Source of the DNA: Thermoanaerobaculia bacterium
Lineage (GTDB): Bacteria; Acidobacteriota; Thermoanaerobaculia; Multivoradales; Multivoraceae
Direction of reading: 5' to 3'
DNA: 64,000 bases
Assembly: GCA_022822365.1 (NCBI GenBank)
Contig: JAJEBV010000015.1
Location: 157,688-221,687, forward strand
Of the stretch, positions 11,898 to 57,687 are shown piece by piece (position 1 is the first letter of the stretch; every line of letters starts with the position of its first letter). Below the pieces are notes generated by a model. It did no database searches, had not been told where the DNA came from, and worked only from the letters and a program-made list of their open reading frames with translations. The translations under genes and the position numbers were made by a program.

Positions 11898-13001
11898 CTA
11901 CGGCTCGAACCGTTCGACGTAGTTCTCCGGACCCTCGGCACGGATGTCGCTGAGCCAATCCCCTTCGTAGGGCCATGCTTCGGGATGGTCCTCGCTCGGG
12001 CCCTGCCAGAAGCGGGCGAACGGACCCTCGGCGCCACCTTCGAGGGACCAGGCCTGGCGGCGGAAGGACCAACTGTCAGGGACGAGGCGGTGCGCCTCGC
12101 GGAAGTGGCGGATCGCCGCCCCGTGATGACCCTCGAGCTCCAGGTGCGACGCGAGCTCGAAGTGGGCGTGTCCGAGGGACACGTCGGCATCGCGCGGCCG
12201 CGATCGTTCGACGACTTCTACCGGCGAGAGCGCGAATCGGCTCGCCGCGCCCTTCTCGACCCAATCGCGCAACGCCAGGTGGTAGGCGTCCGTGTCGGCG
12301 GGGATCTTCGCCGCCTCTTGCAGCATCTCGCCAAAGCGTCCCGGAATCCCGGTACCCGAACCCAAACGGGGCATCCCCTCCGTGCGCGGCGCCGGCGCGG
12401 CCTCCGGCGGCCGGACGATCGTGCCCGTTTCGTCGATCCACACCGAGCTGGGGATGTTGACCACGCCGAAGAGCCTGGCCAGCAGATGGTGCGGGTCAAC
12501 CAGCGACGGGTGTTTCGGCCTGGCGGCCTCGATGAAGCGGCGGCAGCCCTCGGCCCCCAGCGTGTCGAGGCCGACCGTGACCAGTTCGAACCCCTGCGGA
12601 TGAAGCTCCTCGCGTAGCGCCTGCCACCCGGGCAGGTGGGCCGAGCAGCCTCAGTAGGGGGCCCAGGCGTAGACGAGGACCTTCTGCCCGCGCAGGCTCG
12701 AGAGCCGAAACAGCTTCCCGTCCAGATCGGGCAGCTCGAAGTCGGCGTCCCCGGCCGACACCAGCGCTCGCGAGCCGATCGATTCGGGACCGACGGCCCA
12801 GACGCCGTGGTCCTCGTCGTGAACGACCGGCAGGCCGATGGCCTCGGCAACGGCAACCGCGTCCAACTGACCCGACGACGCCGGGGCACGGTCGAAGAGG
12901 GGCACGCAGGCCGAGCCCTTGCAGGCGCCCTCCGGCTTGAGCTGCCAGCCCGTACCGGTCTCGAACTCCGTCCTGGACACTGTCTTCTCTGTGAGGATCA
13001 T
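11898..13001 (-). CDS. Selenoprotein: ResA-like WAxxUGC thioredoxin-fold protein (in-frame UGA at 12651-12653)
   Basis: ORFs 12651-13067 and 11898-12464 are in the same frame. Reading through the TGA gives VLVYAWAPY-U-GCSAHLPGWQALREELHPQGFELVTVGLD, a continuous TlpA/ResA fold. A hairpin follows the UGA. Confidence 0.88.
12620..12636 (-). promoter_or_regulatory. Putative bacterial SECIS element
   Basis: mRNA CCUGCC-CGGGU-GGCAGG, a 6-bp stem at +15 to +31 after the UGA with a G-rich loop. Confidence 0.7.
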
Positions 13002-13058
13002 GCGGCCAGTGTAGCCGGGGCGGAACAACTCCTGCCCGCCGCCTGTTAGTTTCAGCCC

Positions 13059-14195
13059 ATGTCCCACGCACCCTCTACTGGCCCCAGCGAACGGCCGCGG
13101 ATCGCCACCACGGCGGGCCTGCTAGTGCTCGCCGCGCTCGCCTTTCTCGTGGGCTCCCGCTGGCAGGGCAACGCGCTCCAGGCGGAAAGCCAGGGCGAGC
13201 CCCGGTCGGTTACGCCCAGTTCGGGGCTGCTCCCCGCGGAACGCGCAACGGTCAACCTGTTCCGCGAGACGCAGCCGTCGGTCGTCTACATCACGACCTT
13301 GAACCGCCAACGCCGGGTCGACTTTCTGGGACGTCGTTTCGACAGCGTCCAGGATGGCACGGGCAGCGGTTTCCTGTGGGACGACCGGGGCCACATCGTC
13401 ACGAACTTCCACGTCATCCGGAACGCCGACACCTACCAGGTCACCCTCCACGACCAGACGACGTGGCCCGCCACGTTCGTCGGACAGGACCCGGAGATGG
13501 ACCTCGCCGTGCTGCGGATCGACGCGCCCGCGGAGAAGCTGCGGCCGATCCCCGTCGGCTCGTCGAGCGACCTCCAGGTCGGCCAGTCCGTCCTCGCGAT
13601 CGGCAATCCCTTCGGCCTCGACTACACCCTGACGACCGGAGTGATCAGTGCCCTCGACCGGGAAGTCCAGTCGATCGGCGGACGCGAGCTCCAGGGCGTC
13701 ATCCAGACCGACGCAGCGATCAACCCCGGCAACTCCGGCGGCCCGCTTCTCGACTCGAGCGGCCGGCTGATCGGCGTGAACACGCAGATCGTGTCGTCCG
13801 GCGGCGCCTGGGCCGGCATCGGCTTCGCGATTCCGGTCGACACGGTGAACTGGGTCGTGCCGGAGCTGATCGCCCACGGCCGCGTCAACCGTCCGCAGCT
13901 CGGCGTCACCCTGGTGGACGGCGCCCGCTTGCGACCGCGAGTCGACGGCGTGTTGATTCTGGAAGTCGTCCGCAACTCCGGGGCCGACCGCGCCGGCTTG
14001 CGCGGCAGTCGGCGCACGCGCCAGGGCATCGTCCTCGGCGACGTGATCACCGCGATCGAGGGCCAACCCGTCCGCTCGGTCAGTGACATCCGGGCCCAGC
14101 TCGAGCGGCAACAGCCGGGCGACACGGTGACCGTGACCCTGCTCCGCGGCGAGGAGGAGACCGAGGCGAAAGTGCGCCTCTCCGCACCGCGCTAG
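13059..14195 (+). CDS. S1C serine protease with PDZ domain (DegP/HtrA family)
   Basis: VTNFHV (His), DLAVL (Asp), INPGNSGGPL (Ser), C-terminal PDZ, N-terminal TM helix. Confidence 0.93.
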   Translation: MSHAPSTGPSERPRIATTAGLLVLAALAFLVGSRWQGNALQAESQGEPRSVTPSSGLLPAERATVNLFRETQPSVVYITTLNRQRRVDFLGRRFDSVQDGTGSGFLWDDRGHIVTNFHVIRNADTYQVTLHDQTTWPATFVGQDPEMDLAVLRIDAPAEKLRPIPVGSSSDLQVGQSVLAIGNPFGLDYTLTTGVISALDREVQSIGGRELQGVIQTDAAINPGNSGGPLLDSSGRLIGVNTQIVSSGGAWAGIGFAIPVDTVNWVVPELIAHGRVNRPQLGVTLVDGARLRPRVDGVLILEVVRNSGADRAGLRGSRRTRQGIVLGDVITAIEGQPVRSVSDIRAQLERQQPGDTVTVTLLRGEEETEAKVRLSAPR

Positions 14196-14279
14196 GAGCC
14201 TGCGCCGTGCGGCCGCGGCGCACCGTGTGCGCCGACGCTTTCGCGATCGAGCGATGAGGATCCCGTGCGGAGAAAGGCC

Positions 14280-14307
14280 TTGACAAGAACTGCGAATCGA
14301 TTATCGT
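14280..14307 (+). promoter_or_regulatory. Sigma70-like promoter with possible Fur-box overlap upstream of the TonB receptor
   Basis: TTGACA(14280)-N16-TATCGT(14302); TGCGAATCGATTATC resembles a Fur box and overlaps the -10. Confidence 0.5.
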
Positions 14308-14428
14308 CTCTCCCTTCGCCGCCGCCTGATCGCTCCGCTGCCCTCCCCGGAGCGGTTGAAATCAACCCGACGCCGACCTGCGTCGGATCGCTGTCATAGC
14401 AGCACATCGAATCAGAGGAGAAGCCCTA

Positions 14429-16594
14429 GTGCAGCTACCACGTAACCCACTCGACCTGCTCCAGCTACTACCGGCGCTCTTGATCGCTACTCTGGCCACG
14501 ACAGCAGCGCTTAGCGCCCTCGATGACACTACGTCCGGCGAGGGAGCGAGCGAGGGTGGTCGCGCGGAGGCCGAGGACAGCGTGAGTGATGAGATCACTG
14601 TCTACGGCAAGCCACTCAACACTGCCAGCGAGACGGGCAGTCGGCTTGAACTGACCGTCCTGGAAACCCCGGCCACAGTGGACATCATTGACGGCGATGC
14701 GATCCGTGAACGCCTCGATACGACCGTGATGGAGGCCGTGACTCGCTCCGCCGGTTTCACGAATGACGGGCACCCGGGCAACGGTGGCCAGAACATGGCC
14801 GCCAGAGGATTCCGTGGCCAGGGGACGGTCACCAAGATGTTTGACGGCTCCAGCTACTACAACGCCTTCAACACGATCACCTTTCCCTTCGACACCTGGG
14901 GCATCGAGCGCATCGAGGTACTGAAGGGACCCGCCTCCGTACTGTACGGTGAAGGCGGCATCGGTGGCGCGTACAACGTCATCCCCAAACGACCGCAGCA
15001 GGAACACGCCGGAGAAATGCGTGCCACGGTCGGTGAGAACGACACCCGTTTCCTCGGCCTCGGCCTGACCGGCGGTCTCGCCGACAACCTCGCTTACCGG
15101 CTTGACTACAGCAACAACCAGTCTGACAACTGGGTGGACAGAGGCGACAGCGAAGCCGAGATGATCTCCGCCTCGTTGCTGTGGCAGGTCACGGACGATT
15201 TCTCACTGACAGGCCGATACGATCAGGGCGACCAGGAGCCCATGAGGTACTTCGGGATACCGCTGGTCGACGGAGCTGCGCCCACTGAACTCGTGACAAA
15301 AAACTACGACGTCAACGACGGGAGGATCCGTTACCAGGACGACTCTGCCCGGATCAAGGCCAACTGGAACATCAGCGAACGCCTGTCCATGCAATCCGAG
15401 CTGTACCGCCTGAACAGCGATCGTTTCTGGAAGACGCTCGACTACTACCAGTACGATCGGGCCGCCGCCACGGTCAGACGGGAATCGCCTCTGGTGATCG
15501 CTCATGACATAGAGCACGACGGATTCCGCACCAACTTCGTGTTCGATGCCGGCGATGACGACCGCAAGCTGAAGACCTCCGCGGGCTTCGAAACTAACGA
15601 TCTGACTTTCGCGAGGGCAACCAACTTCGGCGGCGCGAACCCCAATGGAGTCGATTGGGTCAATGACTTCGACGTCGTCGATGCCTTCAACTTCGACCCC
15701 GGTGTGTTCACCGATATCACCGCGGCGATGCACCGGACGGAGATCATCTCCGACGTTGCCCAGATGGCGGTGTTTGCCGAGAGCCAGATCGGCCTCACCA
15801 GAGCACTGACACTGGTGGCGGGCCTCCGCCACGAGGATGTTGAAACGGACTACAACGACGTCAGCAACCCGCCGACTTTTGATCAGAGCGTGGACGCGTT
15901 GACAGGCCGGGCAGGACTGACTCTTGACCTTCGCGACAACACCGTGCTCTACGGCCAGTACACGACCGGCGCGACCCATCCGAGCAACAGCATCGTGCAG
16001 ACCTCCCCTACAAACAGCGGGCTGGATTTCATCAGGAGTGAGCAGGTCGAGGTCGGCATCAAGCAGCGACTCCTGGATACGCGGCTGTCCTGGAGTGTGG
16101 CCTTGTTCGACATTGTCAAGAACAACCTGATTGAGGATGATCCGAATTCCCTCAACCCCGATGACCTGATCATCATTCCGGAGCAGACTTCCCAGGGCGT
16201 CGAGTTCAACCTCACGTATGGGCTGACCAATGCCCTCACGTTGATGGCCACCGGGACTGTTCTGGATGCGGAGACCGATACCGGTGAGACACCGAGGGAG
16301 GTGCCCGAGGAGACCTTCAACCTGGGTCTCGTGTGGGCTCCGGTGGGCAAGCTGCAGCTATCGGCCGATGGCCGGTATGTCGGCGGACGCGCTCATCCCG
16401 ACGGCCCGATTCCCTCGTACACGGTCGTTGATGCATCCGCACGCTGGCGCTTCAACCCCGACCTTTCGGTTGCCCTGCGCCTCGACAACGTCTTCGATGA
16501 ACTCTACGCCGTTTCCGCGTACTACTGGCCCAATACCTGGCTTCTCGGCAAGCCCCGCACTGTCAGCCTGACCCTGGACTATGACTTCTTCTAG
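14429..16594 (+). CDS. TonB-dependent receptor (siderophore/metal type)
   Basis: Plug motifs (ETPATVDII, ERIEVLKGPASVLYG), beta-barrel pattern, NVFDELY, C-terminal aromatic residue; GAGGAG SD. Confidence 0.93.
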   Translation: MQLPRNPLDLLQLLPALLIATLATTAALSALDDTTSGEGASEGGRAEAEDSVSDEITVYGKPLNTASETGSRLELTVLETPATVDIIDGDAIRERLDTTVMEAVTRSAGFTNDGHPGNGGQNMAARGFRGQGTVTKMFDGSSYYNAFNTITFPFDTWGIERIEVLKGPASVLYGEGGIGGAYNVIPKRPQQEHAGEMRATVGENDTRFLGLGLTGGLADNLAYRLDYSNNQSDNWVDRGDSEAEMISASLLWQVTDDFSLTGRYDQGDQEPMRYFGIPLVDGAAPTELVTKNYDVNDGRIRYQDDSARIKANWNISERLSMQSELYRLNSDRFWKTLDYYQYDRAAATVRRESPLVIAHDIEHDGFRTNFVFDAGDDDRKLKTSAGFETNDLTFARATNFGGANPNGVDWVNDFDVVDAFNFDPGVFTDITAAMHRTEIISDVAQMAVFAESQIGLTRALTLVAGLRHEDVETDYNDVSNPPTFDQSVDALTGRAGLTLDLRDNTVLYGQYTTGATHPSNSIVQTSPTNSGLDFIRSEQVEVGIKQRLLDTRLSWSVALFDIVKNNLIEDDPNSLNPDDLIIIPEQTSQGVEFNLTYGLTNALTLMATGTVLDAETDTGETPREVPEETFNLGLVWAPVGKLQLSADGRYVGGRAHPDGPIPSYTVVDASARWRFNPDLSVALRLDNVFDELYAVSAYYWPNTWLLGKPRTVSLTLDYDFF

Positions 16595-16625
16595 GCCGCA
16601 CTAGCGCGGTCCCATCAGGCCCGCG

Positions 16626-18125
16626 ATGAGCCCTAGAAGGCTGCTTTACGTCAGCCACCGGTGGCTGGGTATCGCCATGTGCGGTTTCCTCGCCATGTGG
16701 TGCGTCAGCGGCGTGGTGATGATGTACGTCGGTTTCCCTGAGCTGACCAGGGACGAGCACTACGCCGGGCTTGAACCACTCGTTCCCGGCCGCGTCAACG
16801 TTGCTCCTGAAGGGCCCCTCGCTCTCGCCGGTTCGGACGCCCGCATCGAGCAACTGCTACTGACCAGCAGCGCGGAACGGCCCGTCTATCTGCTGAAGGT
16901 GGAAGGCGCCTCGTGGAGGGGCATGTACGCCGATACCGGCGCGGCCATCGACCGGCTGCCTGCGGAGGCGGCCGTGGCGGCGGCAGTCGGCTTCTCCAGG
17001 GCGCAAGATTCCGAGCAGCATTCCGGGAAAGCCGTAGCGGGCAAGCATCTCGAGCAGCTGCACATGGACCAGTGGTCCGTGTCTGATGGTCTGCACCCCT
17101 ACCGGCCGCTGCACCGGGTGGCGATCGACGACGGCATGGGCACGGAGCTGTACGTGTCGTCGTTGACCGGCCAGGTCGTACGCGACACCCGGCGCGGCGA
17201 GCGCATCTGGAACTGGATGGGTTCGAATCTGCACTGGATCTACCCGGTGCAGTTGCGCGAGCACCGCGGCGTCTGGGAGCAGGTCATCATCGTCCTTTCC
17301 CTGGCCGGCCTGGTTTCGGTGATCACCGGCGCGATCATCGGTCTCACGCGCCTGCGGCTGAGGCCCAGGTATCGGGACGGCTCCTGTTCGCCCTATCAGG
17401 GCATGACGAAGTATCACCACATCCTGGGCTTGCTGGCCTCGGTGGTCCTGCTGACGTTCCTGCTTAGCGGCCTGATGTCGGTGGGGCCCTGGGACGTGTT
17501 CGAATCCAGCAGCAGTTTCTCTGAACAGAAACAGCGCTACCGGCAGCAGGAGGGCGCCTCGCGGTCAGCTCCCGCGTACTCCGACGCCCAGGAGGTTCGG
17601 CAACTGATCCGTCAGGGCGCGGATTTTCCGGTCAAGGAGATTGCATGGCACTGGATCGGCGGCACGTCCCATGTCTCTCTGCACGGCTCCAGACACGAAG
17701 TCCAGTACGTGCCCGCTCCGGGCGAGACAGAGTCGCTGGAGCGGAAAGTTCATGGCCGCATCGCCAAACTCATTCCCGGCAGCGGCATCCTGGACCGGCA
17801 GCGGTTGGACAGTTACGACCTCTACTACTACTCCCATCACGACCGGCACCGCCCACTGCCAGCGCTACGAGTCGAGTTCGCCGATCCTGAGTCCACCTGG
17901 TTTCATATTGACCTGTCCACCGGCGAGATTCTCGATCGCCTCACCGACAGGCGCCGGCTGGAACGGTGGATCTTCAACGGGCTGCACACGCTTGACTTCA
18001 CCTTGTTGATCAATAGTCGACCTTCCTGGGACCTGGTGATGATCTTCCTTTGCAGCGGTATCTTCCTTTTCTCGGTGACATCCGTGGTCATTGCCGTGCA
18101 GTACCTGCGACGGAGAACGCGCTGA
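16626..18125 (+). CDS. PepSY-associated TM helix protein (iron-uptake associated)
   Basis: HRWLG, SGVVMMYVGFP, NLHWIY, HHILG, FNGLHTLDF. Confidence 0.88.
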   Translation: MSPRRLLYVSHRWLGIAMCGFLAMWCVSGVVMMYVGFPELTRDEHYAGLEPLVPGRVNVAPEGPLALAGSDARIEQLLLTSSAERPVYLLKVEGASWRGMYADTGAAIDRLPAEAAVAAAVGFSRAQDSEQHSGKAVAGKHLEQLHMDQWSVSDGLHPYRPLHRVAIDDGMGTELYVSSLTGQVVRDTRRGERIWNWMGSNLHWIYPVQLREHRGVWEQVIIVLSLAGLVSVITGAIIGLTRLRLRPRYRDGSCSPYQGMTKYHHILGLLASVVLLTFLLSGLMSVGPWDVFESSSSFSEQKQRYRQQEGASRSAPAYSDAQEVRQLIRQGADFPVKEIAWHWIGGTSHVSLHGSRHEVQYVPAPGETESLERKVHGRIAKLIPGSGILDRQRLDSYDLYYYSHHDRHRPLPALRVEFADPESTWFHIDLSTGEILDRLTDRRRLERWIFNGLHTLDFTLLINSRPSWDLVMIFLCSGIFLFSVTSVVIAVQYLRRRTR

Positions 18126-18202
18126 ACCGCCGGCACCGGCCGGGCGGCGCACTCTCGGGTCGTCTCGCCCAAGGGGGTGTTCCGCGCTAGAGTCGCACCT
18201 TC

Positions 18203-19975
18203 GTGACTCAGCGAGACCTCTTCCCGCGGACGGCACTCCTCGCCGCCCTTCTCATGACCGTGCCCGGATCTCCCGGCGCCGAAGCCCAGCCGACGCAAGC
18301 GTCCGAACGCGGCAACTTCGTCCCCGTCACCGACGCCATGCTCCAGAGTCCGAGCGACGACGACTGGCTGATGTGGCGCCGCACGCTAGACGGCTGGGGC
18401 TACAGCCCGCTCGACCAGGTCACGGCCGAGAACGTGGGCGACCTGCGGCTCGTCTGGTCCCGCGGCATGAGCGAAGGCCGCCAGCAGGGAACGCCGCTCG
18501 TCTACGACGGCGTGATGTACATGCCGAACCCCATCGACGTCATCCAGGCCATCGACGCGGTGACCGGAGACCTCCTCTGGGAGTACCGGCGCGAGCACCC
18601 GGAGAACATCCTCCAGCAGGTCGGCGGCCTCGCCGCGAACAACCGGAACATCGCGATCTACGGCGATCTGATCATCGACACCAGCGTCGACGAGTTCGTT
18701 TTCGCCCTCGATGCTCTGACGGGCGAGTTGGCCTGGGAGACGATGATCCTCGACTACAAGACCCATCCGGCGATGCAGAGTTCCGGCCCGATCATCGCCG
18801 ACGGCAAGGTCATCTCGGGCCGAAGCTGCCTGCCCCGCGGCGGCCCGGACGCCTGCGTCATCGTCGCCCACGACGCGAAGACCGGGGCCGAACTCTGGCG
18901 GACCCGCACGATCCCGGCGCCCGGGGAACCGGGCGACGAGACCTGGGGCGACACGCCGTTCGAGGACCGCACCCACGTCGGCACCTGGATGGTGCCGAGC
19001 TACGACCCAGGGCTGGAACTGATCTACATCGGCACCTCGGTCACCTCCCCGGCGCCGAAGTTCCTGCTCGGGGGCAGGGAACTCCGGCACCTGTACCACA
19101 ACTCGACTCTCGCGCTCGACGCGAACAGCGGCGAGATCGCCTGGCACTACCAGCACCTGAACGACCACTGGGACCTCGACCATCCCTTCGAGCGCCTGCT
19201 GGTCGACACCGCCGTGGCGCCCGACGCCGACGAGGTCGACTGGATCAATCCGCGTATCAAGCCGGGCGAGGAACGCAAGGTGATCACCGGCGTTCCCGGC
19301 AAGACGGGCGTCGTCTACACCCTGGACCGCGAGACCGGCGAGTTCCTCTGGGCGCGGCCGACGATCCGGCAGAACGTGATCGCGACGATCGACGGCGCCA
19401 CCGGCGCGGTCACCGAGAACTCGGAAGTCGTGTTCCGTGAGCTGGGCCAGGAGGCCTACGTCTGCCCCACTTACATCGGCGGCAAGGACTGGCAGGCGGG
19501 CGCCTACAGCCCGGTGACCAACGCGATGTACGTGCCGATGCGCAACTCCTGCGCCCGGATGACGGCGACCCGCGCCGGCCGGCTGCCGATCTACGCCCTG
19601 GACGCCGAGCACCAGATCGCCCCCGGCACGGACCTGAGCGGATCCGTCCACGCCGTGTCCGCCGAGACCGGCAAGTCGCTGTGGACGTACGAGCAGCGCG
19701 CGGGCCTGATGTCGCTCTTCGTCACCGGCGGCGGCCTCGTCTTCGTCGGCGACGGCAACGGCCGGTTCCGCGCCCTGGACGACGAGACCGGCGAGAGCCT
19801 CTGGGAGATCAACCTCGGCTCGCCGGTCACCGGCTTCCCGGTCACCTACGCGGTCGACGGCCGCCAGTACGTCGCGGCCAGCACGGGGAACCGGTCCGCG
19901 GCCCTGCTGTCCGGCCTGACGCCGGAGCTGCGGCCCAGTTCGGGCAACAACCTGTTCGTCTTCGCTCTGCCTTGA
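18203..19975 (+). CDS. PQQ-dependent dehydrogenase / PQQ-binding beta-propeller protein
   Basis: DWLMWRRT..GWGYSPL.Q, TPLVYDGVMY, DHWDLD, GKTG, PVTYAVDGRQYVA. Confidence 0.88.
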   Translation: MTQRDLFPRTALLAALLMTVPGSPGAEAQPTQASERGNFVPVTDAMLQSPSDDDWLMWRRTLDGWGYSPLDQVTAENVGDLRLVWSRGMSEGRQQGTPLVYDGVMYMPNPIDVIQAIDAVTGDLLWEYRREHPENILQQVGGLAANNRNIAIYGDLIIDTSVDEFVFALDALTGELAWETMILDYKTHPAMQSSGPIIADGKVISGRSCLPRGGPDACVIVAHDAKTGAELWRTRTIPAPGEPGDETWGDTPFEDRTHVGTWMVPSYDPGLELIYIGTSVTSPAPKFLLGGRELRHLYHNSTLALDANSGEIAWHYQHLNDHWDLDHPFERLLVDTAVAPDADEVDWINPRIKPGEERKVITGVPGKTGVVYTLDRETGEFLWARPTIRQNVIATIDGATGAVTENSEVVFRELGQEAYVCPTYIGGKDWQAGAYSPVTNAMYVPMRNSCARMTATRAGRLPIYALDAEHQIAPGTDLSGSVHAVSAETGKSLWTYEQRAGLMSLFVTGGGLVFVGDGNGRFRALDDETGESLWEINLGSPVTGFPVTYAVDGRQYVAASTGNRSAALLSGLTPELRPSSGNNLFVFALP

Positions 19976-21370: not shown

Positions 21371-21383
21371 GGCAAGGCACACC

Positions 21384-22250: not shown

Positions 22251-22277
22251 GCGTCACCGCGGCACGGGCCGGCGAGA

Positions 22278-46517: not shown

Positions 46518-46528
46518 GGGAGCGGCTA

Positions 46529-48201: not shown

Positions 48202-48204
48202 CGC

Positions 48205-48837: not shown

Positions 48838-50588
48838 GATCGCGCGCCCTCGGCCGCCGTCTCCGCGGCGCCCGTCATGACGCCCCGGTAGAGCCGGATC
48901 GCCCGGCCGATCGCCTCGAACACCTCGCGGCCGCGCGGTCCGTCGAAGACCGGGGTCTTCTCGCCCTCGCCGTCCTCGACCTCCTCGTACCCGAACTCGA
49001 TCAGGACCGCCGGCATCGACGCCCCGGTCAACACCCGCAGGGGCGCGCGCCGGAAGCCCCGGTTCGGCAGGTCGAGGGCGTCGCCGACCTGGGTCTGGAT
49101 CAGCCGGGCGAGCAGTGCGCTGCGCTCGAGCTGGCCGTCCTGCACCCGGTCCCAGGGTTCGAGCGGCGGGATCACGACCGGCGGCTCTTCCTCCTCCGGT
49201 TCCGACTCCAGGTCGTCGAACACCTCGCCCTCAAGAGCGTCCGGTTCCGCCGCGTCCTCGGCGGCTTCGAGAGACGGGTCGGCCTCCGGGTCCACTTCCA
49301 GGTCCGCTGCCGATTCAGCCTCCTCCGGCACGAGCGTCGCCGGAGGCGGATCGAGAACCCACGTCTGGAACGCGCTTCCCGGCAGGAGCGCCGCGTCGCC
49401 GCTCACGTGCAGCGACACGAAGAGGTCGGCCTCGTACTGGTTGGCCAGGGAGGTGCGATTCTCGAGCGTGACCGTGCTGTCGCCGCTGCGGGTGAGCACC
49501 ACGCGCGCCCCCAGCTCGGACTCCAGGTGCGACCTGAGGGCCTCGGCGATCCTGAGTGCGAGGTTCTTCTCGCTCTGACCGAACGGCGCACGCACGCCGT
49601 TGTCCGTCCCGCCATGACCCGGATCGAGGACGATCCGGAACTCGCGCCGTTCCTCCTCCGGCCGCGATGTCGCGCGCGGCTGAAGTCCCGGCCGTCCCCG
49701 CGTGATGTCGAGGACGAGCTGGACCCGCGGCGGACGGCCCAGGAGGTACGGTTCGGACGCCTCGGCGCGAGGCGCCAGACCGATGTCGACCGAACGCTCC
49801 CGCACTTCGATCCAGCGCACGAGGGGATCGTTCAGCCGCACCCGGCGGCGGGGGTCCATGACCCCGCTCAGCAGCCGCAGCCGCACGCCGGCGCGGTAAC
49901 GATCGACCTGGAAGCGAGGCCGGCCGGAGAAGGTCACGACGAGCGTCGTGGCGCCGAGGTCGTGAACGCGGTCCACCTCCACGTCGAGACGGCGCTCGCC
50001 CGTCCTGTCCACACGGAGCAGGCCCCGCCGCCGGTCGAAGTCGAAGCGGTAACCGAGCGTCTCCGGATACGCCCGCGCCAGCGCGTCGACCGGCACGAAC
50101 AGCTTGCGCGGCTCGATGGGCTCGGGGGGCAGCTCGGGCTCTTCCTCTTCGCCATCGTCCTCCGACTCCGCCGCTTCCCCGTCTTCCTCCTCCTCTTCGT
50201 CGGGGTACACGGGTTCCGGCTCGATCCACGGCCTGATCGACAGGTCGTGGACCTCGCCGTCGACCATGACGGTCCTGCTCAGGGGTCCGAGAACGACCTC
50301 CCGCCCCGCTACGCGTACCGTGTGAGCCTCGCCGAGCGGACCGATCTCGAGGTCCCCTCCCAGCACCTCGACGACGGAACCCAGCGCGACGAGCGGCCCG
50401 GAGGAAGAGCGGGCCCAGGGCAGGGGCTCGGAATCACGGCCGACGACGATCGTCCCCGCCTCGTGGGAGAGAATGACCGTCTCCGGCTCGTCGTCCCTCT
50501 GCGCCGACGCCGGCGCGAGCAGCGAAAGCCCCAGGGCCGCTGCCAGCAGTCCGGAGGCACACCAGATGATGCCGCGTCGGAGAGACAC
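48834..50588 (-). CDS. N-acetylmuramoyl-L-alanine amidase (Amidase_3)
   Basis: [23 protein letters not shown]; acidic linkers. Confidence 0.9.
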
Positions 50589-50689
50589 TACGGCAACCTA
50601 ACACCCCGGCAGGACTGCGTGATTCCGGACCTGTAGGCCCCGCCGGTACCAACACGACTGTGCTAAATTGCGCGGCCCTGCGCACGCGT

Positions 50690-50765
50690 GGCCCGTTCGT
50701 CTAGGGGTCTAGGACGCTGGCCTCTCACGCCAGTAACACGGGTTCGAATCCCGTACGGGCTACCA
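50690..50765 (+). tRNA. tRNA-Glu(CUC)
   Basis: GGCCCGT/ACGGGCT acceptor stem, CT-CTC-AC loop, GTTCGAATC, encoded CCA. Confidence 0.97.
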
Positions 50766-50780
50766 CGCACATCAACGTGG

Positions 50781-50858
50781 CTCTGCTGGGTGCGCGGGTC
50801 TTCTGACCCGCTGCCGCCGAAGGCGGCCAGAGAACCGCGCCGGCCGATGGCCGGCTCC
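50781..50858 (+). repeat. Triple-hairpin REP-like element, copy 4
   Basis: Core at 50789-50827; shares GCTCTGCTGG flank with copy 2 and the GCCGGCC hairpin type with copy 1. Confidence 0.9.
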
Positions 50859-50874
50859 ACTCCCAAGCCCGCAG

Positions 50875-51738
50875 TCAGGGCACCGACGAAGCACTGTTGA
50901 CGTCGACGTGCGTGTTTGGATTCAGGTCCTGATTCGGGTCGACCAGATGCCCGCCCGGGAAGCTGACCGAGACCGCCGGGGCGGACGTATCGAGGCACAG
51001 AAGGTGGTTGTTGTCCCGGTCCCCCAGATCCGCGAGAGCCGCCGGAGCGATCTCGTCACTCGAGCCGTCCGGCCGCCCCACCGTCACGCGATAGAGGGCG
51101 CGCTCGGCGTCGCCAAGTTCGTCGCCACTCGGCAGTCGTACCCCTCCGGCCCAGGTCGCCCGGACCACCTGCTGGATGCCCTCCGGGCAGGCGGTCCCCC
51201 GGCTCTCCGTTGACAATCGGTCCTCGGGCACCACCTCCGCCAGCACGAGAGAGGGCCCGGCATCGAGCGGCGTGACATCAGTCTCCGTGCCGCGAAAGTT
51301 CACCGGCTCGCCAGCTACTCCATCCGAGAGCAGGTCGCCGACAACGAGCACCTTCACCGGCGGGTCGTCGTCCGCGTTGCCGAACTCGCCGATGAGGAGC
51401 ACGGTCCTGAGTTCGCCTGGATCGCCGGCCGGCCTGAGGGTCGTGCAGAGGGGAGTGCGTTCAGACCCCGACTCCGTGACGATCCGGAAGTCCCCGGGCT
51501 GCAAGGTCTCCGCGTCCACGGTATGGGACAGCACGACCGGCATGCCGTCCTGCCCGGCCGCGCCCTGGCAGAGGAGATTCACCCCGGCCGGCAGGGCGTT
51601 GTCCAACCCGAAGAAGGCCGACAGCGGGCGCGCCGTTTCGCCGTTCGCGGCCTGCGCCGCGGCACCGCCTCCGGCGGCGGCCGCGGCAGCGAGCACTCCC
51701 GCGGCCATCGCGGCAATCAACGAAGATCGATCATTCAC
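50875..51738 (-). CDS. Exported hypothetical protein
   Basis: Signal peptide, SAFFGLDNALP, GQDGMPVV, several Cys; coding-like codon usage. Confidence 0.75.
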   Translation of the reverse strand: MNDRSSLIAAMAAGVLAAAAAAGGGAAAQAANGETARPLSAFFGLDNALPAGVNLLCQGAAGQDGMPVVLSHTVDAETLQPGDFRIVTESGSERTPLCTTLRPAGDPGELRTVLLIGEFGNADDDPPVKVLVVGDLLSDGVAGEPVNFRGTETDVTPLDAGPSLVLAEVVPEDRLSTESRGTACPEGIQQVVRATWAGGVRLPSGDELGDAERALYRVTVGRPDGSSDEIAPAALADLGDRDNNHLLCLDTSAPAVSVSFPGGHLVDPNQDLNPNTHVDVNSASSVP

Positions 51739-51777
51739 TTCGGCTTCTCCTTAGGATCTTCGGGCGAAGCGTGGTTC

Positions 51778-53307
51778 TCACTCCGCGAGCCGCCACCTCG
51801 GCGGCGCCACGAAACCGTCACGGCCTTCCCAGAAGATCGGCACATGCTCCTCCGGCTGCAGCGCCCGGAAGGCGAGCGCCTTCTCCGTCAGACGCTCGGC
51901 GATCTCCGGGTGCCCTGCTGACAGGTCGTTCTGCTCGCCGGGATCGTCTCCGAGGTGAAAGAGCATGGTCTGCGCTTCGGCGAGCGCCGCGCGGTCGAGC
52001 GGTTCGGGGCCGATGACGATCAGCTTCCAGTCCCCTTCCATCGCCATGAGCTGCTCGCGCTCGTTGCTCAATTGGGCGCACCAGGAGTAGAAGTCGCGGT
52101 CGCCGGCGACGTCGCCGCCCCGAAGCGCCGGCAGGGCATCGCGGCCGTCCAGTTCGAGATCGGGACGGTCGGAGACGGCCGCGGCCTCCATCAGCGTGGG
52201 CAACACGTCGAGGTAGTTGAGCGGCGCGCCGATCGAGCCGCCGCCGCTCACCCCGCCGGCAGGCCAGCGCGCCGCCGCCGCGACCCGGATGCCGCCTTCG
52301 AAGACGTTGCCCTTGGAACCCCGGAACGGCCGGTTGTCGCCGATGCCCGTGTCGCCGCCGTTGTCCGAGAAGAACCACACCAGTGTGTCGTCCGCCACGC
52401 CGGCCTCGTCGAGGGCATCGAGGATGCGGCCGATGCCGGCGTCCATCGCGTGCACCATCGCGCCGGTGATCCTGCGGTTCCGGAGACGGCCTTCCACGTC
52501 CTCGAGGCGCGCCCGGCTCATCGCGTGACCGCCGAACCACTCGTACTTCTCGGGCGGTACCCCCGCGCCGACGACCGCCTCGATCGGCACCGGCTCGAGG
52601 TCGGCATACCGCGGCAGATCCTCTTCCTTCGCCTGGAACGGCGAGTGCGGCGCGTTGTAGGGCACGAACAGGAAGAAGGGCGCGTCACCGTCGGCGTGCT
52701 CGCGAACGAAGCGCACCGCGTGCTCGGAGATCAGATCCGTGCTGTAGCCCGGCTCGTCGACCGACTCCTCGTCGTGGAACCAGTCGACCTCGCCGTAGCG
52801 CTCGTGCGTGAAGTAGTCGAAGCCCCAGCCGAGGTGGCCGACGAAACGCGTGAAGCCGCGCTCGAGGGGGTGGTACTCGCTGCGCGACAGACCCAGATGC
52901 CACTTGCCGACGAGGCCGCGCTGCTCGTAGCCGGCATCGGCGAGCACCTCCGGGATGAGAGTCGCCTCGGGATCGAGACCGTAGTCGTGGTACCCCATGA
53001 CGACGCCGCGCATCATCCCGTAACGGATCGGATGCCGGCCGGTCATCAGGCCGGCGCGAGTCGGCGAGCAGATCGGCGCCACGTAGAAGCGATCGAGCCT
53101 GACGCCCTCCGCGGCGATGCGGTCGATGTGGGGGGTGGCGATGTCGCCGCCGTTGAAGCTGACGTCGCGCCAGCCGAGGTCGTCGGCGACGATGAGCACG
53201 ACGTTGGGCGGCCGTTGCGCTCCCGCTTCCCCGGCCTCCTCGGCCGGCGTACAGCCGAGCAGGAGGATGACCGTCGCGAGCACGATCCCGTGTTCCGTCC
53301 TCATCAC
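51778..53307 (-). CDS. Arylsulfatase, lipoprotein
   Basis: LLGC lipobox, ADDLGW, CSPTRAGLMTG, GKWHLG, SDNGG. Confidence 0.93.
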   Translation of the reverse strand: MMRTEHGIVLATVILLLGCTPAEEAGEAGAQRPPNVVLIVADDLGWRDVSFNGGDIATPHIDRIAAEGVRLDRFYVAPICSPTRAGLMTGRHPIRYGMMRGVVMGYHDYGLDPEATLIPEVLADAGYEQRGLVGKWHLGLSRSEYHPLERGFTRFVGHLGWGFDYFTHERYGEVDWFHDEESVDEPGYSTDLISEHAVRFVREHADGDAPFFLFVPYNAPHSPFQAKEEDLPRYADLEPVPIEAVVGAGVPPEKYEWFGGHAMSRARLEDVEGRLRNRRITGAMVHAMDAGIGRILDALDEAGVADDTLVWFFSDNGGDTGIGDNRPFRGSKGNVFEGGIRVAAAARWPAGGVSGGGSIGAPLNYLDVLPTLMEAAAVSDRPDLELDGRDALPALRGGDVAGDRDFYSWCAQLSNEREQLMAMEGDWKLIVIGPEPLDRAALAEAQTMLFHLGDDPGEQNDLSAGHPEIAERLTEKALAFRALQPEEHVPIFWEGRDGFVAPPRWRLAE

Positions 53308-53393
53308 CTAAGTCCGTTCCCTCCTGCTTTCGCTTGCGAAGACGCACCCACGCTACAAGAATGCAGAATCCCCTTCCACAAGGAGAGCCGACG

Positions 53394-54368
53394 ATGAGCA
53401 CAGCCGCCCTCGCCTACCTCGGTGTCCGCTCGGACAAGCTGGAAGACTGGAACGACTTCGCCTGCAACCTGCTCGGCATGCAGCAGGTCGACCGCGGGGG
53501 CAAGTCCCTCTCCTACCGGATGGACAACTTCGAGCAGCGCCTGCTGGTCTCCGACGAACCGGGCGACACGCTCTCCTTCATGGGCTGGGAGGTTGCCGGC
53601 GAGGACGATCTCGAGGGCTTCGCCACGAAGCTGGACGCGGCCGGCGTCGAGGTGGACTGGGGAAGCTCCGAACTCGCCGACCGGCGCTTCGTCGAGCGTC
53701 TTCTCGTCTGCCACGACCCCGACGGGAACCGCGTCGAGCTGGTGTGGAAGCCGATGCGCACCAGCGACCCGTTCGTGCCGGGCAGGACGATTTCGGGCTT
53801 CAAGACGGGCCCGCTCGGCATGGGGCACGCGGTCCTGCACGTCACCGACATCGAGAAGCAACTGGCCTTCTACCGCGACCTCCTGGGCTTCGAGCTCACC
53901 GACTTCGGCAACATGCCGCTCGTCCCCATCCACTTCCTGCACGTCAACGGCCGTCACCACAGCCTGGCGATGATCGCCTCCGGGCAGAAGGGCTTCCACC
54001 ACTTCATGGTCGAGTTCCAGTCCCTCGACGACGTCGGCCAAGGCTACGACCTGGCCGGGGCGACGGAAGACCGGGTGGGCTTCACCCTCGGCCGGCACAC
54101 CAACGACTTCATGACGTCCTTCTACGCCCGGACGCCCTCCGGCTTCTTCGTCGAGAACGGCTGGGGCGGCCGGATCATCGACCCGGAGACCTGGCAGCCC
54201 GTCGAACTGTTCGACGGCCCGAGCCTCTGGGGCCACGACTGGGTCGACCTGCCGGACGAAGCCAGGACGATGGCGCGCAACTTCCGGATCGATCTCGCCT
54301 CGCGCGGCGTCCAGTCTCCGCCTTTCATCGATTGCCCGTGGCTGTTCGAGCAGGTGGCGAAGACGTAG
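53394..54368 (+). CDS. Extradiol ring-cleavage dioxygenase (BphC/HsaC-like, VOC family)
   Basis: MGHAVL, RHHSLA, HHFMVE, LGRHTND, SFY, ENGWG. Start at ATG 53394. Confidence 0.92.
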   Translation: MSTAALAYLGVRSDKLEDWNDFACNLLGMQQVDRGGKSLSYRMDNFEQRLLVSDEPGDTLSFMGWEVAGEDDLEGFATKLDAAGVEVDWGSSELADRRFVERLLVCHDPDGNRVELVWKPMRTSDPFVPGRTISGFKTGPLGMGHAVLHVTDIEKQLAFYRDLLGFELTDFGNMPLVPIHFLHVNGRHHSLAMIASGQKGFHHFMVEFQSLDDVGQGYDLAGATEDRVGFTLGRHTNDFMTSFYARTPSGFFVENGWGGRIIDPETWQPVELFDGPSLWGHDWVDLPDEARTMARNFRIDLASRGVQSPPFIDCPWLFEQVAKT

Positions 54369-54380
54369 CCCGTCAGCCCG

Positions 54381-55727
54381 TCACCCGCCGTCGCCCGGGT
54401 CGAAGCGCTTCTCGAGTCCGGTCCAGCAGTCCGTGTAGTCGTCCTGTAGCGGCGCCTCCCGGGCCGCGAACTCGGTCAGGTGCTGCGGGAAGCGGGTCTC
54501 GAACATGAAGCTCATCGTGTTCTCCAGCTTCTTCGGAGCCAGTTCAGCGGAGGTCGCGGCCTCGAAGGCGTCGGCGTCCGGGCCGTGGGGCAGCATCATG
54601 TTGTGCAGCGACAGACCCCCCGGCGCGAAGCCCTCGGGCTTGGCGTCGTAGATGCCGTGGATGTTGCCCATCAGCTCGGACATGATGTTCTTGTGGTACC
54701 ACGGCGGCCGGAATGTGTGCTCGGCGACGCTCCAGCGATCGCGAAAGAGCACGAAGTCGATGTTGGCGGTACCCGGCACGCCCGACGGCGCGGTCAGGAC
54801 CGTGAAGATCGAAGGGTCGGGGTGGTCGAAGAGAACGGCGCCGACCGGCGCGAACGCCTCCAGGTCGTACTTCGAGGGCGCGTAGTTGCCGTGCCAGGCG
54901 ACGATGTCGAGCGGAGACTGGTCGATGTCCGTCGCGTGGAAGCGGCCGCACCACTTCACCACCAGCCGTGACGGGACCTCGCGGTCCTCGAACGCCGCTA
55001 CTGGGGTCTTGAAGTCGCGCGGGTTGGCGAGGCAGTTGGCGCCGATCGGCCCGCGGTTGGGAAGGCCGAACTTCGCGCCGTAGTTCTCGCACACGAAGCC
55101 CCGGGCCGGGCCCTCGGTGACCTCGACGCGAAAGACCATGCCGCGCGGCAGGATCGCGACCTCCCGCGGCTCGAGGTCGATCCGCCCGAGTTCCGTCCAG
55201 AACACGAGCCGGCCGTCCTGGGGCACGACCAGCAGTTCCGAGTCCGCCGAGTAGAAGTACTCGTCGACCATGCTCTCGGTGGCGAGGTAGACGTGCGCGG
55301 CCATCCCCACCTGGGTGTTGACGTCGCCGGCGGTCGTCATCGTGCGCATGCCGGTAAGGAACGTCAGCGCCTCGGTCGGGTGAGGCACCGGGTCCCAGCG
55401 GTACTGACCGAGCGAGATGACGTCGTCGACGATGTGCGGGGCCGTCCGCCAGTAGGGCAGGTCGACGCTCCGGAAGCGCGACGTGTGCCTGACCGACGGA
55501 CGGATGCGGTAGCACCAGGTGCGCTCGTTCTCACCCTGCGGCGCGGTGAAGGGTGTGCCCGAGAGCTGTTCCGCATACAGGCCATAGGCGCAGCGCTGCG
55601 GACTGTTCTGGCCCTGCGGCAACGCCCCCGGCAGCGCCTCCGTCTCGAAGTCGTTGCCGAACCCGGGCATGTACCCGGGCATCGTCCCGCAGGGGGTTTC
55701 GGCCTGGACGATCCGGCGTCCCGTCAT
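54381..55727 (-). CDS. hmgA: Homogentisate 1,2-dioxygenase
   Basis: [65 protein letters not shown]. Confidence 0.98.
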
Positions 55728-55745
55728 GGGTCGAACGCTCCCTCT
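55724..55745 (-). repeat. 22-nt direct repeat copy A (leader and start of hmgA)
   Basis: AGAGGGAGCGTTCGACCCATGA, identical to 57684-57705. Confidence 0.9.
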
Positions 55746-55780
55746 AGCCGTGCTTCGGCTAAGGGGATTCTAGTCGCCGA

Positions 55781-56470
55781 TCAAGCCGCCGTCAGATCGA
55801 TGGGCTCCTGCTTCACGATCTTCCGGCAGATCGTGAGGCACGGCTGAAAGCTGTCCCGCCCTGTCAAGCGCTCAACGAGGCCGGCCACTCCGGGCCACCG
55901 CGACGCGTCGAGCGGACCGGCGACGAACTCGAACTGCGCGATCTGACACGCGAGCGAGATATCCGCGATCGTCAGCGCGTCTCCCACCAGGAACGGCTCG
56001 TCGCCGACTTCGCCCTCGAGATAGTCGAGACGCCGTGGAAGCCGCTCCTCGTACGTCTTCCTGGCCGTGTCGACGTCGGGCTCCTTGCCCATGAAGCGGT
56101 TGAACTGGATCGGGCGGAAGATCCCGAGGCCGATCGCCATCGCCAGCTCGGTGTCGCAGTACTCCTCCAGCCAGACCGCGCGACCGCGTTCGTAGGGGTC
56201 CGCCGGATAGAACGCGGGCTCCGGGAACTTCTGCTCGACGTAGGCGCAGATCGCCGACGAATCGGGGATCGTGCCAGGCGGACCTTCCTCGCCGACGTCC
56301 GTGTCGCGCAACACCGGAATCCGACGGGCCGGACTGATCTCCTTGAACCAGTCGGGCATCGGCATGATGTTCACGCTCTCCAGCTCGAAGGGCGCGCCCT
56401 TCTCGCGCAGCAGGACATCCGCCTTTCGAACGAAAGGAGAGAGGGGGGCTCCGTAGAGGATGAGGCCCAT
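55781..56470 (-). CDS. Glutathione S-transferase family protein
   Basis: SPFVRK, SPARRIPVL, DSSAICAY, LTIADI. Confidence 0.9.
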   Translation of the reverse strand: MGLILYGAPLSPFVRKADVLLREKGAPFELESVNIMPMPDWFKEISPARRIPVLRDTDVGEEGPPGTIPDSSAICAYVEQKFPEPAFYPADPYERGRAVWLEEYCDTELAMAIGLGIFRPIQFNRFMGKEPDVDTARKTYEERLPRRLDYLEGEVGDEPFLVGDALTIADISLACQIAQFEFVAGPLDASRWPGVAGLVERLTGRDSFQPCLTICRKIVKQEPIDLTAA

Positions 56471-56481
56471 CCTGGCGGCGC

Positions 56482-57687
56482 CTAGCGCCCCGGCATCACC
56501 AGCGGTTCGATCGGCACTTCGATCGTGACGGTCTCTTCCTTCGGCACGTAGCAGACCGTCTCGCTGCAGGCCTGGTAGACGACGTCGACCGGAATCTCGA
56601 TCGAGGTCGGCTTGTCCTGAATCGGCCAGTTGAGAATCTCGGCGTTCAGCGCGATCGGGATGGCGATGTCGGTCACGCCTTCCTCGTAGACGTTGAGCGT
56701 CACGTCGAGCTGGGGGAACTCACGCTTACGGGTCGCCGGGTAGACCGGCTCGCCCAGCCGCACGCCCTTGGTCGGCACGACGGTCGCCGTCGATGCGATG
56801 AAACCGTCGGGCAGGGGGTCGGCGTAGATGTGGTAGCCGTCGGCGACGTCGAAGCGCACATGGAGGGTGCTCGAGTACTCGAACTTGAGCGCCTCGTCGG
56901 CGAGGAAGACGGACACCTCGACGTGCTCGTCGCCCAGTTCGGCGGTCGGCGCCTCGTGCTTGGCGAGGATGCGGCCGATCGCGCTGTCGCGAATCGTCCC
57001 GGCCGACGTGCGCGTCGCGTAGTGGCGGTGGAAGAACTTCTCCGTCACGCGGCCCTCACCGTCGGTGACGTAGACGCCAGGGAAGGGAATGCCGTAGAAG
57101 CCCCGCTCGGTGGCGCGGTTGAACACATCCGAGTCGGGGTCGATCGTCGTGTTCAGGATGCCGAAGCGCTTGATGACTTCCGAGTCGTAGTCGGAGAGCA
57201 GGTCATAAGAGATGTCCTTGCTGTCGGCGAAGGCCTTCAGATGCTGCTCCGAGTCGTAGCTGACGCCATAAACCTTGATGCCCTCGGCGTCGAAGAGCGA
57301 GATGTTCTCTTGCAGCTCGACCAGCTGCGTGCGGCAGTACGGTCACCAGACGGCGGAGCGGTAGAAGACCACGATGGCCTTCGAGTCGCCCCGGTCCGCG
57401 TGGAAGTCGACGAGTTCGCCGTTCTGGTTCGGCAGCTCGAACTCGGGCAGGCGCTCGCCGATCGCGGGACCGGTCGGGAACTCGTGGTCCGCCGGATAGC
57501 GCCGTCCCGGGTGGCTCGTCGGAATGGGCACCGTGATGCCGAGGTCGTCCTGCCGTGCCTCCGGCGACTGGTTCTCGTGAGCGCCCTTCACTCTCTCATT
57601 CTCGTTCCCGGCGCCGTCCTGGGCGAAGGCCGGAACGGCGAAGAGCAGCGGGACAAGGGCGAGCAAGGCGAATCGGCCTGTCTTCAT
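56482..57687 (-). CDS. Exported selenoprotein: AhpC/TSA-type UxxC domain fused to a DsbD N-terminal-like domain (in-frame UGA at 57343-57345)
   Basis: ORFs 57343-57687 and 56482-57126 are in the same frame. Read-through gives FYRSAVW-U-PYCRTQLVELQE...VYGVSYD...LLSD...FG, then HIYADP...YQACSETVCYVP. Confidence 0.88.
57312..57328 (-). promoter_or_regulatory. Putative bacterial SECIS element
   Basis: mRNA GCAGCU-GGUCG-AGCUGC, a 6-bp stem at +15 to +31 after the UGA. Confidence 0.7.

Follow-up and report, generated by a model that had tools for sequence, protein, structure and literature searches.

The consensus model for bacterial SECIS elements, bSECISearch, reportedly goes back to Zhang and Gladyshev in 2005. 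The Fig. 2 legend of PMC13188914 restates the consensus as an apical loop of 3–9 nt on a stem of 4–16 bp, a G at loop position 1 or 2 that is usually followed by G or U, a distance of 16–37 nt from UGA to apical loop and a free energy of at most -7.5 kcal/mol. In the Escherichia coli genes fdhF, fdnG and fdoG, the element is a minimal 17-nt upper stem-loop placed 11 nt downstream of the UGA and containing U17, G23 and U24 (PMC8659212).

Two genes on the minus strand of the 64-kb stretch of DNA analysed here (the window) share one arrangement, in which 14 nt separate the UGA from a perfect stem of 6 bp that closes a loop of 5 nt with G at +22. In gene A, the in-frame UGA (12651..12653, read 12653..12651; codon 117 of the 367-aa form) is followed by the spacer GGCUGCUCGGCCCA (+1 to +14; 12637..12650) and the 17-nt hairpin CCUGCC-CGGGU-GGCAGG (12620..12636), which consists of a 5' arm at 12636..12631, the loop CGGGU at 12630..12626 (G+22 at 12629) and a 3' arm at 12625..12620. 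In gene B, the UGA (57343..57345, read 57345..57343; codon 115), kept in orthologues, is followed by the spacer CCGUACUGCCGCAC (+1 to +14; 57329..57342) and the 17-nt hairpin GCAGCU-GGUCG-AGCUGC (57312..57328), with a 5' arm at 57328..57323, the loop GGUCG at 57322..57318 (G+22 at 57321, U+23 at 57320) and a 3' arm at 57317..57312. This geometry, described in an initial annotation, was confirmed at both sites. The GU that the annotation saw in both loops is present in each, but in a different register (+24/+25 in gene A, +22/+23 in gene B), and the position of the G is the only loop feature strictly common to the two genes of the window.

With the loop 20 nt from the UGA, a stem of 6 bp, a loop of 5 nt and free energies of -9.3 kcal/mol (gene A) and -8.9 kcal/mol (gene B) for the 17-nt elements, both hairpins agree with every sequence property of the consensus as given in PMC13188914; they occupy one precise point of its wide range and nothing outside it. 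Genes A and B also share with the model an in-frame UGA within the coding region and Cys homologues at the Sec position (TGC in full-length family A homologues, TGT in P0016 of family B; the Cys-form homologues read were P0016, P0122 and P0236). The likeness to the E. coli elements lies in the 17-nt hairpin with G-U in its apical loop, and the SelB-dependent mechanism is presumed to be the same. The loop starts C-G-G in gene A (family consensus C-G-U) and G-G-U in gene B, the latter's GGUC being as in fdhF. Unlike the E. coli elements, with their 11-nt spacer and G/U at +20/+21, families A and B have a 14-nt spacer and G/U at +22/+23, a loop of 5 rather than 3–4 nt, and uninterrupted stems without the bulged U (U17); RNAalifold alignments of the two families revealed no conserved lower stem. 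Single-sequence folding of 42-nt stretches from both genes gave no significant z-score, the minimum-energy fold of gene B favoured another small hairpin over the SECIS, and Rfam covariance models gave no match at gathering score, with only chance-level matches at E up to 10.

Translation through the TGA joins the flanking ORFs of gene A in frame into a protein of 367 aa from the ATG at 13001 (11898..13001, minus strand), or of 389 aa from an upstream GTG at 13067; the full-length Cys homologues P0121–P0123 and P0236 begin at the same Met as the shorter form. The protein has a thioredoxin-fold domain (AhpC-TSA, PF00578, 1.8e-14) with the redox motif W-A-P-Y-U-G-C, followed by a TPR-like C-terminal part. 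It belongs to the ResA-like WAxxUGC selenoproteins of NCBIfam NF041054, with 494.4 bits against a cut-off of 300, residues 1–366 of 367 covered and the motif present. No difference from that family was found apart from the loop of the window copy, which reads CGGGU where CGUGU is usual; codon +8 is thereby Gly and no longer Val, and a G stands at +23 where the family otherwise has an invariant U.

The ORFs flanking the TGA of gene B likewise join in frame, giving a 401-aa protein (56482..57687, minus strand; translation, Pfam, orthologues) with a signal-peptide-like N-terminal segment, the redox motif W-U-P-Y-C and Pfam matches to AhpC-TSA (PF00578, 1.2e-27; 96.7 bits against a gathering score of 26, with UxxC at the redox site) and DsbD_N (PF11412, 1.2e-12). 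PF00578 and U-P-Y-C are shared with the Prx-like UxxC thiol:disulfide oxidoreductase selenoproteins (‘Prx-like 1’ in PMC2398784; table in PMC13188914), from which gene B differs by the additional C-terminal DsbD_N domain and the signal-peptide-like N terminus. No dedicated NCBIfam model matches gene B, and no description of this PF00578–DsbD_N fusion was found in the literature searched.

We consider it likely, with a probability of roughly 0.85, that these are canonical bacterial SECIS elements within the coding sequence of two distantly related AhpC/TSA-type thioredoxin-fold selenoprotein genes of a Candidatus Multivorans-like acidobacterium, and that they have the same geometry through selection on how far the loop G lies from the UGA, as a property of the families and not of the lineage. 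By analogy with the E. coli and Moorella systems, a ribosome at the UGA would have the 17-nt hairpin positioned at its mRNA entrance. The apical loop (G+22, usually U+23) would be bound by SelB, carrying GTP and Sec-tRNASec, through its C-terminal winged-helix domain, and the Sec-tRNASec would then be brought to the A site, competing with RF2; the geometry common to A and B would reflect selection on the spacing between UGA and loop G. As the initial annotation proposed, both hairpins are very probably SECIS elements, judging from their conservation and from the rarity of the pattern after ordinary stops (both below). The window contains no tRNA-Sec and no selA/B/D, so Sec decoding in this organism, like Sec insertion and SelB binding at both genes, is inferred. 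The hairpins reveal neither a new recoding mechanism nor a clade-specific code.

The two genes had been called unrelated, which does not hold: both proteins are of the AhpC/TSA (PF00578) thioredoxin-fold type and they align to one another, with E 2e-5 in BLASTP and a probability of 93.5% and E 2.3e-7 in hhalign. Genes A and B are thus two distantly related selenoprotein genes of known kinds, ResA-like WAxxUGC and Prx-like UxxC. Their homology lends itself to another explanation, possible though rather doubtful, in which a single ancestral Sec thioredoxin-fold gene already had the hairpin, and its position was kept while its sequence drifted. Alignment to solved TlpA/ResA-like structures is consistent with this, assigning both Sec residues to the first Cys of WCxxC, and both hairpins encode the same helix. 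However, the direct pairwise alignments (BLASTP, hhalign) set the two Sec residues three positions apart, the hairpins of A and B have no sequence in common, and Cys forms exist in both families, so that Sec may have separate origins. Moreover, the helix after the redox motif is shifted by one codon between the families (L6/Q10 of A match L7/Q11 of B), yet both hairpins begin at +15, and G+22/U+23 come from a Val codon at +8 in both families although V8 of A aligns with E9 of B. What is kept between families A and B is the distance from UGA to hairpin rather than the place in the protein. This is a modest addition to what is known: within each family, the UGA-to-loop distance is exact to the nucleotide over phylum-scale divergence, and it is also equal between the families despite the one-codon offset of the helix.

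The initial annotation suggested a lineage-specific SECIS rule. On this reading the rule would be set by the SelB of the clade, and every selenoprotein gene of the clade would be expected to have UGA-N14-stem6-loop5. Both selenoprotein genes of the window do obey the pattern exactly, most of the members fetched are from Acidobacteriota, and the elements of both families are 2 nt more distant from the UGA than those of proteobacterial FdnG and FdhF (we measured the FdnG register, G+20/U+21, in E. coli, Plesiomonas, Burkholderia, Sinorhizobium, Roseomonas and Shinella). The geometry is nevertheless found beyond several classes of Acidobacteriota, with G+22/U+23 for family A in a Pseudomonadales-labelled metagenome-assembled genome (MAG) and for family B in a Hydrogenedentota MAG (both labels are MAG annotations, for which binning errors are possible), as well as in ‘bacterium AH-315-P07’ and in metagenomic loci whose GC runs from 0.46 to 0.74. 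It also lies inside the general consensus (PMC13188914), and a lineage rule would rest on just two families that are themselves related. We therefore regard such a rule as unlikely: because the register is conserved within each family across phyla, it goes with the gene family and a general SelB/ribosome constraint, and not with lineage. More speculatively, the elements might make up a discrete class of minimal SECIS, 17 nt long and without a bulge, in a ‘+22 register’ (UGA-N14, 6 bp, loop N-G-U-N-N, 6 bp; G-U from the Val codon at +8), used by at least two thioredoxin-fold families across phyla alongside the ‘+20 register’ of formate dehydrogenases in the same phyla. If so, two discrete registers, linked to hairpin architecture, would be acceptable to SelB and the ribosome, the UGA distance would be re-selected after indels, and the definition could sharpen SECIS predictors well past the 16–37 nt consensus.

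Comparison of orthologues supported the view, also in the initial annotation, that structure and position rather than sequence are conserved, as do the differing stems of A and B. TGA and hairpin were retained in 80/80 metagenomic orthologous loci of family A and in all 82 family B loci covering the site (79 of 80 genome loci plus L161–L163), and G+22 was invariant in the 69 and 51 distinct sequences of the two families. The covariation that the annotation proposed to look for is present in family A only. Among its 69 distinct orthologues, 97.6% of stem cells are paired and 3/6 pairs have compensatory changes (C-G to U-A at +16/+30 and +15/+31; G-C to C-G at +18/+28), while third codon positions in the spacer vary freely. 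The observed paired fraction and covariation score were reached by 0/500 shuffles and the compensated-pair count by 1/500, all slid controls were lower on paired fraction and covariation score, and RNAalifold predicted the same helix from the alignment. Family B has no compensatory changes, only invariance and frozen synonymous sites: its hairpin is near-invariant in nucleotides across 80 sequences with protein identity down to 59%, and RNAalifold found the SECIS hairpin as the only consensus helix. Normalised synonymous entropy was 0.109 in the hairpin against 0.523 in the rest of the gene (p 3.5e-5). In 73 distinct Acidobacteriota sequences, the hairpin codons ACG, CAG and GAG were each present in 73/73 and CTG in 72/73, whereas the same amino acids use variable codons elsewhere in the gene, and the spacer shows synonymous variants (CCG/CCA/CCC, TAC/TAT, TGC/TGT, CGC/CGA/CGT/CGG).

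Such conservation could in principle be a by-product of conserved amino acids and GC-rich codon bias, with no function at the RNA level. CAG-CUG and GAG-CUG pair automatically, as do CUG-CC and GG-CAG; the gene B stem is in part an automatic consequence of the CAGCUG and GAGCUG that encode Gln-Leu and Glu-Leu, and with the commonest codons 5/6 pairs of each stem follow from QL..EL (B) and LP.WQ (A). The Cys-form control is not clean: the family B Cys homologue has the full hairpin and one family A Cys homologue has 5/6 pairs, most of the stem being kept in the Cys forms L167/L168 and L169. Even so, we judge this explanation very unlikely, because family A shows synonymous–synonymous compensation (a Leu codon goes from CUG to UUG as a Gln codon goes from CAG to CAA), the family B hairpin has the lowest synonymous entropy among 118 7-codon windows of the gene and retains a rare CAA codon in 66/73 sequences, the Val codon provides G-U at +22/+23 in both families at non-homologous protein positions, and the stem is gone from L170, the most distant Cys form and the only one to have lost it.

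That the TGAs are true stops, with split genes, pseudogenes or sequencing errors leaving the downstream ORFs separate or dead, is extremely unlikely: although nearly every member stands as a truncated ORF in public gene calls, TGA lies at the exact redox-Cys codon in 162/162 independent orthologous loci of the two families from many assemblies, with coding-type GC3 on both sides of it and conserved protein sequence downstream.

The exact pattern (TGA-N14, six Watson–Crick pairs, 5-nt loop) occurs after 3/1,306 TGA trinucleotides on both strands of the window, that is, at 1/1,304 beyond the two Sec sites, and after 0/574 TAA or TAG. The additional match (9489..9522, minus strand; TGA at 9522..9520, then CGGCGC-UAGCG-GCGCCG at 9505..9489) was rejected as a third SECIS and is attributed to chance, its TGA being out of frame in an intergenic stretch beyond the TAG that ends a vapC-like ORF, and its loop having A instead of G at +22. 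Of the window's 46 coding-like ORF ends, the two Sec sites alone fit with 0 mismatches, the other 44 having 1–6; equal frequency after true stops, named in the initial annotation as grounds for refutation, was thus not seen (0/44 ordinary gene ends). When G-U pairs were allowed and G at +22 was required, the pattern recovered 152/164 Sec sites of families A and B against 15 of about 19,100 other TGAs in 1.6 Mb (window plus fetched loci), equivalent to a sensitivity of about 93% for these families and about 0.08% false matches per TGA. As a means of finding further selenoproteins, the pattern is therefore specific, but families A and B were all it recovered in 1.6 Mb. Public protein sets almost all mis-call both genes: for each, about 116 of the best 120 database relatives are fragments that begin after the UGA, and the simple pattern would aid the re-annotation of acidobacterial and marine MAGs.

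Gene A, which encodes a ResA-like WAxxUGC selenoprotein, occupies 13001 (or 13067) to 11898 on the minus strand and has its in-frame TGA at 12653..12651; gene B, which encodes a Prx-like UxxC selenoprotein, occupies 57687 to 56482 on the same strand, its in-frame TGA lying at 57345..57343. Fourteen nucleotides past each TGA lies a minus-strand hairpin, CCUGCC-CGGGU-GGCAGG in gene A (12636..12620) and GCAGCU-GGUCG-AGCUGC in gene B (57328..57312). Both have a perfect 6-bp Watson–Crick stem and a 5-nt loop with G at +22 (counted 3′ of the Sec UGA), exactly the geometry claimed in the initial annotation; the GU dinucleotide lies at +24/+25 in the gene A loop versus +22/+23 in that of gene B. Sequence comparison with their orthologues (families A and B) indicates that both hairpins are very probably real, conserved and canonical bacterial SECIS elements.

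The exact pattern, TGA-N14-stem6-loop5, was found at 3 of the window's 1,306 TGA trinucleotides (both strands), two of the three being the in-frame TGAs of genes A and B. It followed none of the 574 TAA or TAG trinucleotides (window, both strands), and ordinary stops in the window carried 1–6 stem-position mismatches in 44 of 44 cases (46 coding-like ORF ends examined). When G–U pairs were allowed and G was required at +22, a scan of 1.6 Mb on both strands (window plus fetched loci) detected the pattern at 152 of the 164 Sec sites of families A and B but at only 15 of ~19,100 other TGAs, all out-of-frame or non-coding by translation. The pattern is therefore rare elsewhere, and not equally frequent after true stops. 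GC3-based scanning revealed no in-frame TGAs in the window beyond those of genes A and B, and no convincing additional selenoprotein candidate in ~720 kb of fetched flanks.

The third exact match in the window, CGGCGC-UAGCG-GCGCCG (9489-9522, minus strand), has A at +22 and is intergenic behind a vapC-like gene; as it lies between convergent genes, it could equally be a terminator-like hairpin. From ORF translations, window positions 9534-10177 (minus strand) hold a likely type II toxin–antitoxin pair, in which a PIN/VapC-like ORF (9534..10061) overlaps a short antitoxin-like ORF (9923..10177, minus strand), and a small HTH/XRE-like ORF (9249..9500, plus strand) is convergent with this pair.

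The two genes had been described as unrelated, which is wrong. Both proteins match Pfam AhpC-TSA (PF00578; 1.8e-14 for A and 1.2e-27 for B, which also has a DsbD_N domain), they align by BLASTP at 24% identity over ~100 residues (E 2e-5) and their family profiles are matched by hhalign with a probability of 93.5% (E 2.3e-7); judged by these similarities, genes A and B are distant paralogues. Both are also known kinds of selenoprotein, since gene A belongs over its full length to NCBIfam NF041054 (‘ResA-like WAxxUGC motif-containing protein’), scoring 494 bits where the cut-off is 300, and gene B was assigned to the Prx-like UxxC kind already listed in the literature (PMC2398784, PMC13188914). 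The two families are thus related to each other and already catalogued. The window DNA is 94–98% identical to metagenome-assembled genomes (MAGs) named Candidatus Multivorans sp. or Thermoanaerobaculia bacterium; Candidatus Multivorans is placed in Acidobacteriota, class Thermoanaerobaculia. Gene callers end the ORF at the UGA and start afresh beyond it, so that ~116 of the best 120 database relatives per gene are fragments spanning just 53–70% of the query. In MAGs this mis-annotation is systematic for both families, and the practical value of the hairpin finding lies in the repair of such truncated annotations. Searching plasmids by tblastn gave only a partial C-terminal match for the gene A protein (Rhodococcus) and none for the gene B protein.

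Each gene has a head-to-head neighbour, judged by eye from its translation: for gene A a trypsin-like/PDZ (HtrA-type) protease-like ORF (378 aa, 13059-14195, plus strand), and for gene B a sulfatase-like ORF (593 aa, 57714-59495, plus strand). By DNA alignment, the closest Ca. Multivorans loci also have the sulfatase neighbour.

A metagenome scan yielded 80 family A loci (GC 0.46 to 0.74), with TGA at the same codon in 80/80. The helix was paired in 97.6% of cells and three of its six pairs showed compensatory changes, one of them purely synonymous (Leu CUG to UUG with Gln CAG to CAA). None of 500 shuffles equalled the real alignment in paired fraction or covariation score, and one in 500 equalled its number of compensated pairs; the slid controls were all lower on the first two measures, and RNAalifold recovered the same helix. 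The usual family A loop is CGUGU, with CGGGU in gene A of the window and in two others (Val to Gly at codon +8, the eighth after the UGA). Thus gene A has G at +23 (window 12628), a position that is U in 66 of 69 distinct family members (GUG Val to GGG Gly); only the fetched loci L158 and L159 share this G. In both families G+22 is invariant and U+23 nearly invariant, and gene A of the window is a natural test case for the importance of U+23.

For family B, scanning a single genome from each species yielded 80 loci, every one from Acidobacteriota (labelled Thermoanaerobaculia, Vicinamibacterales, Bryobacterales and Holophagales), and the TGA was kept in all 79 that span the Sec site. The sequence ACGCAGCUGGUCGAGCUGCA was almost invariant in nucleotides, with proteins down to 59% identity and with variable third codon positions in the spacer. 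Normalised synonymous entropy was 0.109 in the hairpin codons versus 0.523 in 176 other conserved codons (p 3.5e-5), and the lowest values among 118 windows along gene B were in those spanning codons +4 to +11. RNAalifold returned the 6-bp helix as the sole consensus structure, with zero compensatory changes in its alignment. Covariation in orthologues, raised in the initial annotation, was seen for family A but not for the nearly invariant family B helix. The hairpin was also present in three more family B members (a Hydrogenedentota-labelled MAG, ‘bacterium AH-315-P07’ and one further assembly), with loops CGUUG or GGUCG.

The stems are largely dictated by conserved peptides with common codons (QL..EL in B, LP.WQ in A). 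Among forms with Cys in place of Sec, a family B homologue retains the whole hairpin, a close family A homologue keeps 5/6 pairs and only a distant one has lost it; the SECIS-position hairpin is mostly or fully kept in L167 (1001-2188), L168 (217-1404) and L169 (290-1393), Cys homologues that between them represent both families, reading TGT … GCAGCU-CGUCG-AGCUGC or TGC … UCUGCC-GGUGU-GGCAGU. Such retention points to recent Sec/Cys switches or else to a stem driven by the protein. The argument for selection on RNA is carried by the synonymous compensation in family A and, in family B, by synonymous variation reaching its gene-wide minimum at the hairpin. Single-sequence folding supported the gene A hairpin over 54 nt (z −2.3), and 42-nt folds of genes A and B were no better than shuffles. 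Neither hairpin matched Rfam at gathering or permissive thresholds, and no Sec machinery was found within the 64-kb window. For gene B, the minimum-energy fold chose a different, 4-bp hairpin, which conservation does not support because its spacer positions vary. An fdhF-like conserved lower stem including the UGA was rejected, as alignment folding pairs nothing outside the 6-bp helix.

The bacterial SECIS model specifies a loop of 3–9 nt, an upper stem of 4–16 bp, a UGA-to-loop distance of 16–37 nt, G at loop position 1 or 2 with G or U usually next, and an energy of −7.5 kcal/mol or lower (PMC13188914). Both hairpins agree with each item (20 nt from UGA to loop, a 6-bp stem and a 5-nt loop), with energies of −9.3 (gene A) and −8.9 kcal/mol (gene B). 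The E. coli minimal SECIS is a 17-nt hairpin 11 nt past the UGA, with a bulged U and G23/U24 (PMC8659212); the hairpins of genes A and B are likewise 17 nt. We measured G+20/U+21 in E. coli fdhF, fdnG and fdoG, and fdnG of Plesiomonas, Burkholderia, Sinorhizobium, Roseomonas and Shinella also has G+20/U+21, with covarying stems. Compared with these E. coli-type elements, families A and B lie 2 nt farther from the UGA and are without the bulge. The remaining interest is this precise +22 register, common to two families and distinct from the +20 of formate dehydrogenases. Among plasmid-borne fdnG homologues (L173/L175 pair), that of Azospirillum brasilense has Cys at the Sec position, and in that of Paracoccus marcusii Arg-Arg replaces Val-Sec (…QARRRHGPTV), which may be genuine or may stem from the assembly or annotation of the record.

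The shared geometry had been taken as a lineage-specific rule, a reading that is unsupported and partly contradicted. A family A gene on contigs of two assemblies, with a protein record annotated Pseudomonadales (GC ~0.52), carries TGA-N14-CUUGUC-CGUGU-GGCGAG in the +22 register, so that a gammaproteobacterial bin shows +22 in family A while gammaproteobacterial fdnG uses +20. Together with the Hydrogenedentota-labelled family B member, this indicates that the register goes with gene family rather than lineage, a reading limited by labels that derive from MAG annotation.

Common descent of the hairpin geometry in these paralogues was weighed against selection on its distance to the UGA. In alignments to solved TlpA/ResA-like structures, Sec falls on the first Cys of WCxxC in both families, and the two redox positions lie one residue closer together in family A. 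Direct BLASTP and hhalign instead set WAPYU over WUPYC, with the Sec residues 3 apart; we prefer the structure-based alignment, with Sec on the first redox Cys in both. By both kinds of alignment the helix after the redox motif is offset by one codon (L6/Q10 of A matching L7/Q11 of B), and despite this offset the hairpin starts at +15 in both families. A Val codon gives the G-U at +22/+23 in both, and those residues are non-homologous. The kept start and the non-homologous Val codon speak for selection on how far the hairpin lies from the UGA more than for simple inheritance, and common descent of the geometry is the less likely reading.

Immediately beneath the 6-bp stem, positions +14 and +32 are A·C in 61/69 family A sequences (12637/12619 in the window) and C·A in 51/51 family B sequences (57329/57311). 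An A·C mismatch may thus close the stem, or protein constraint alone could account for the pattern, as both are second codon positions. At +33, A predominates in both families, via the non-preferred codons GCA and CAA.
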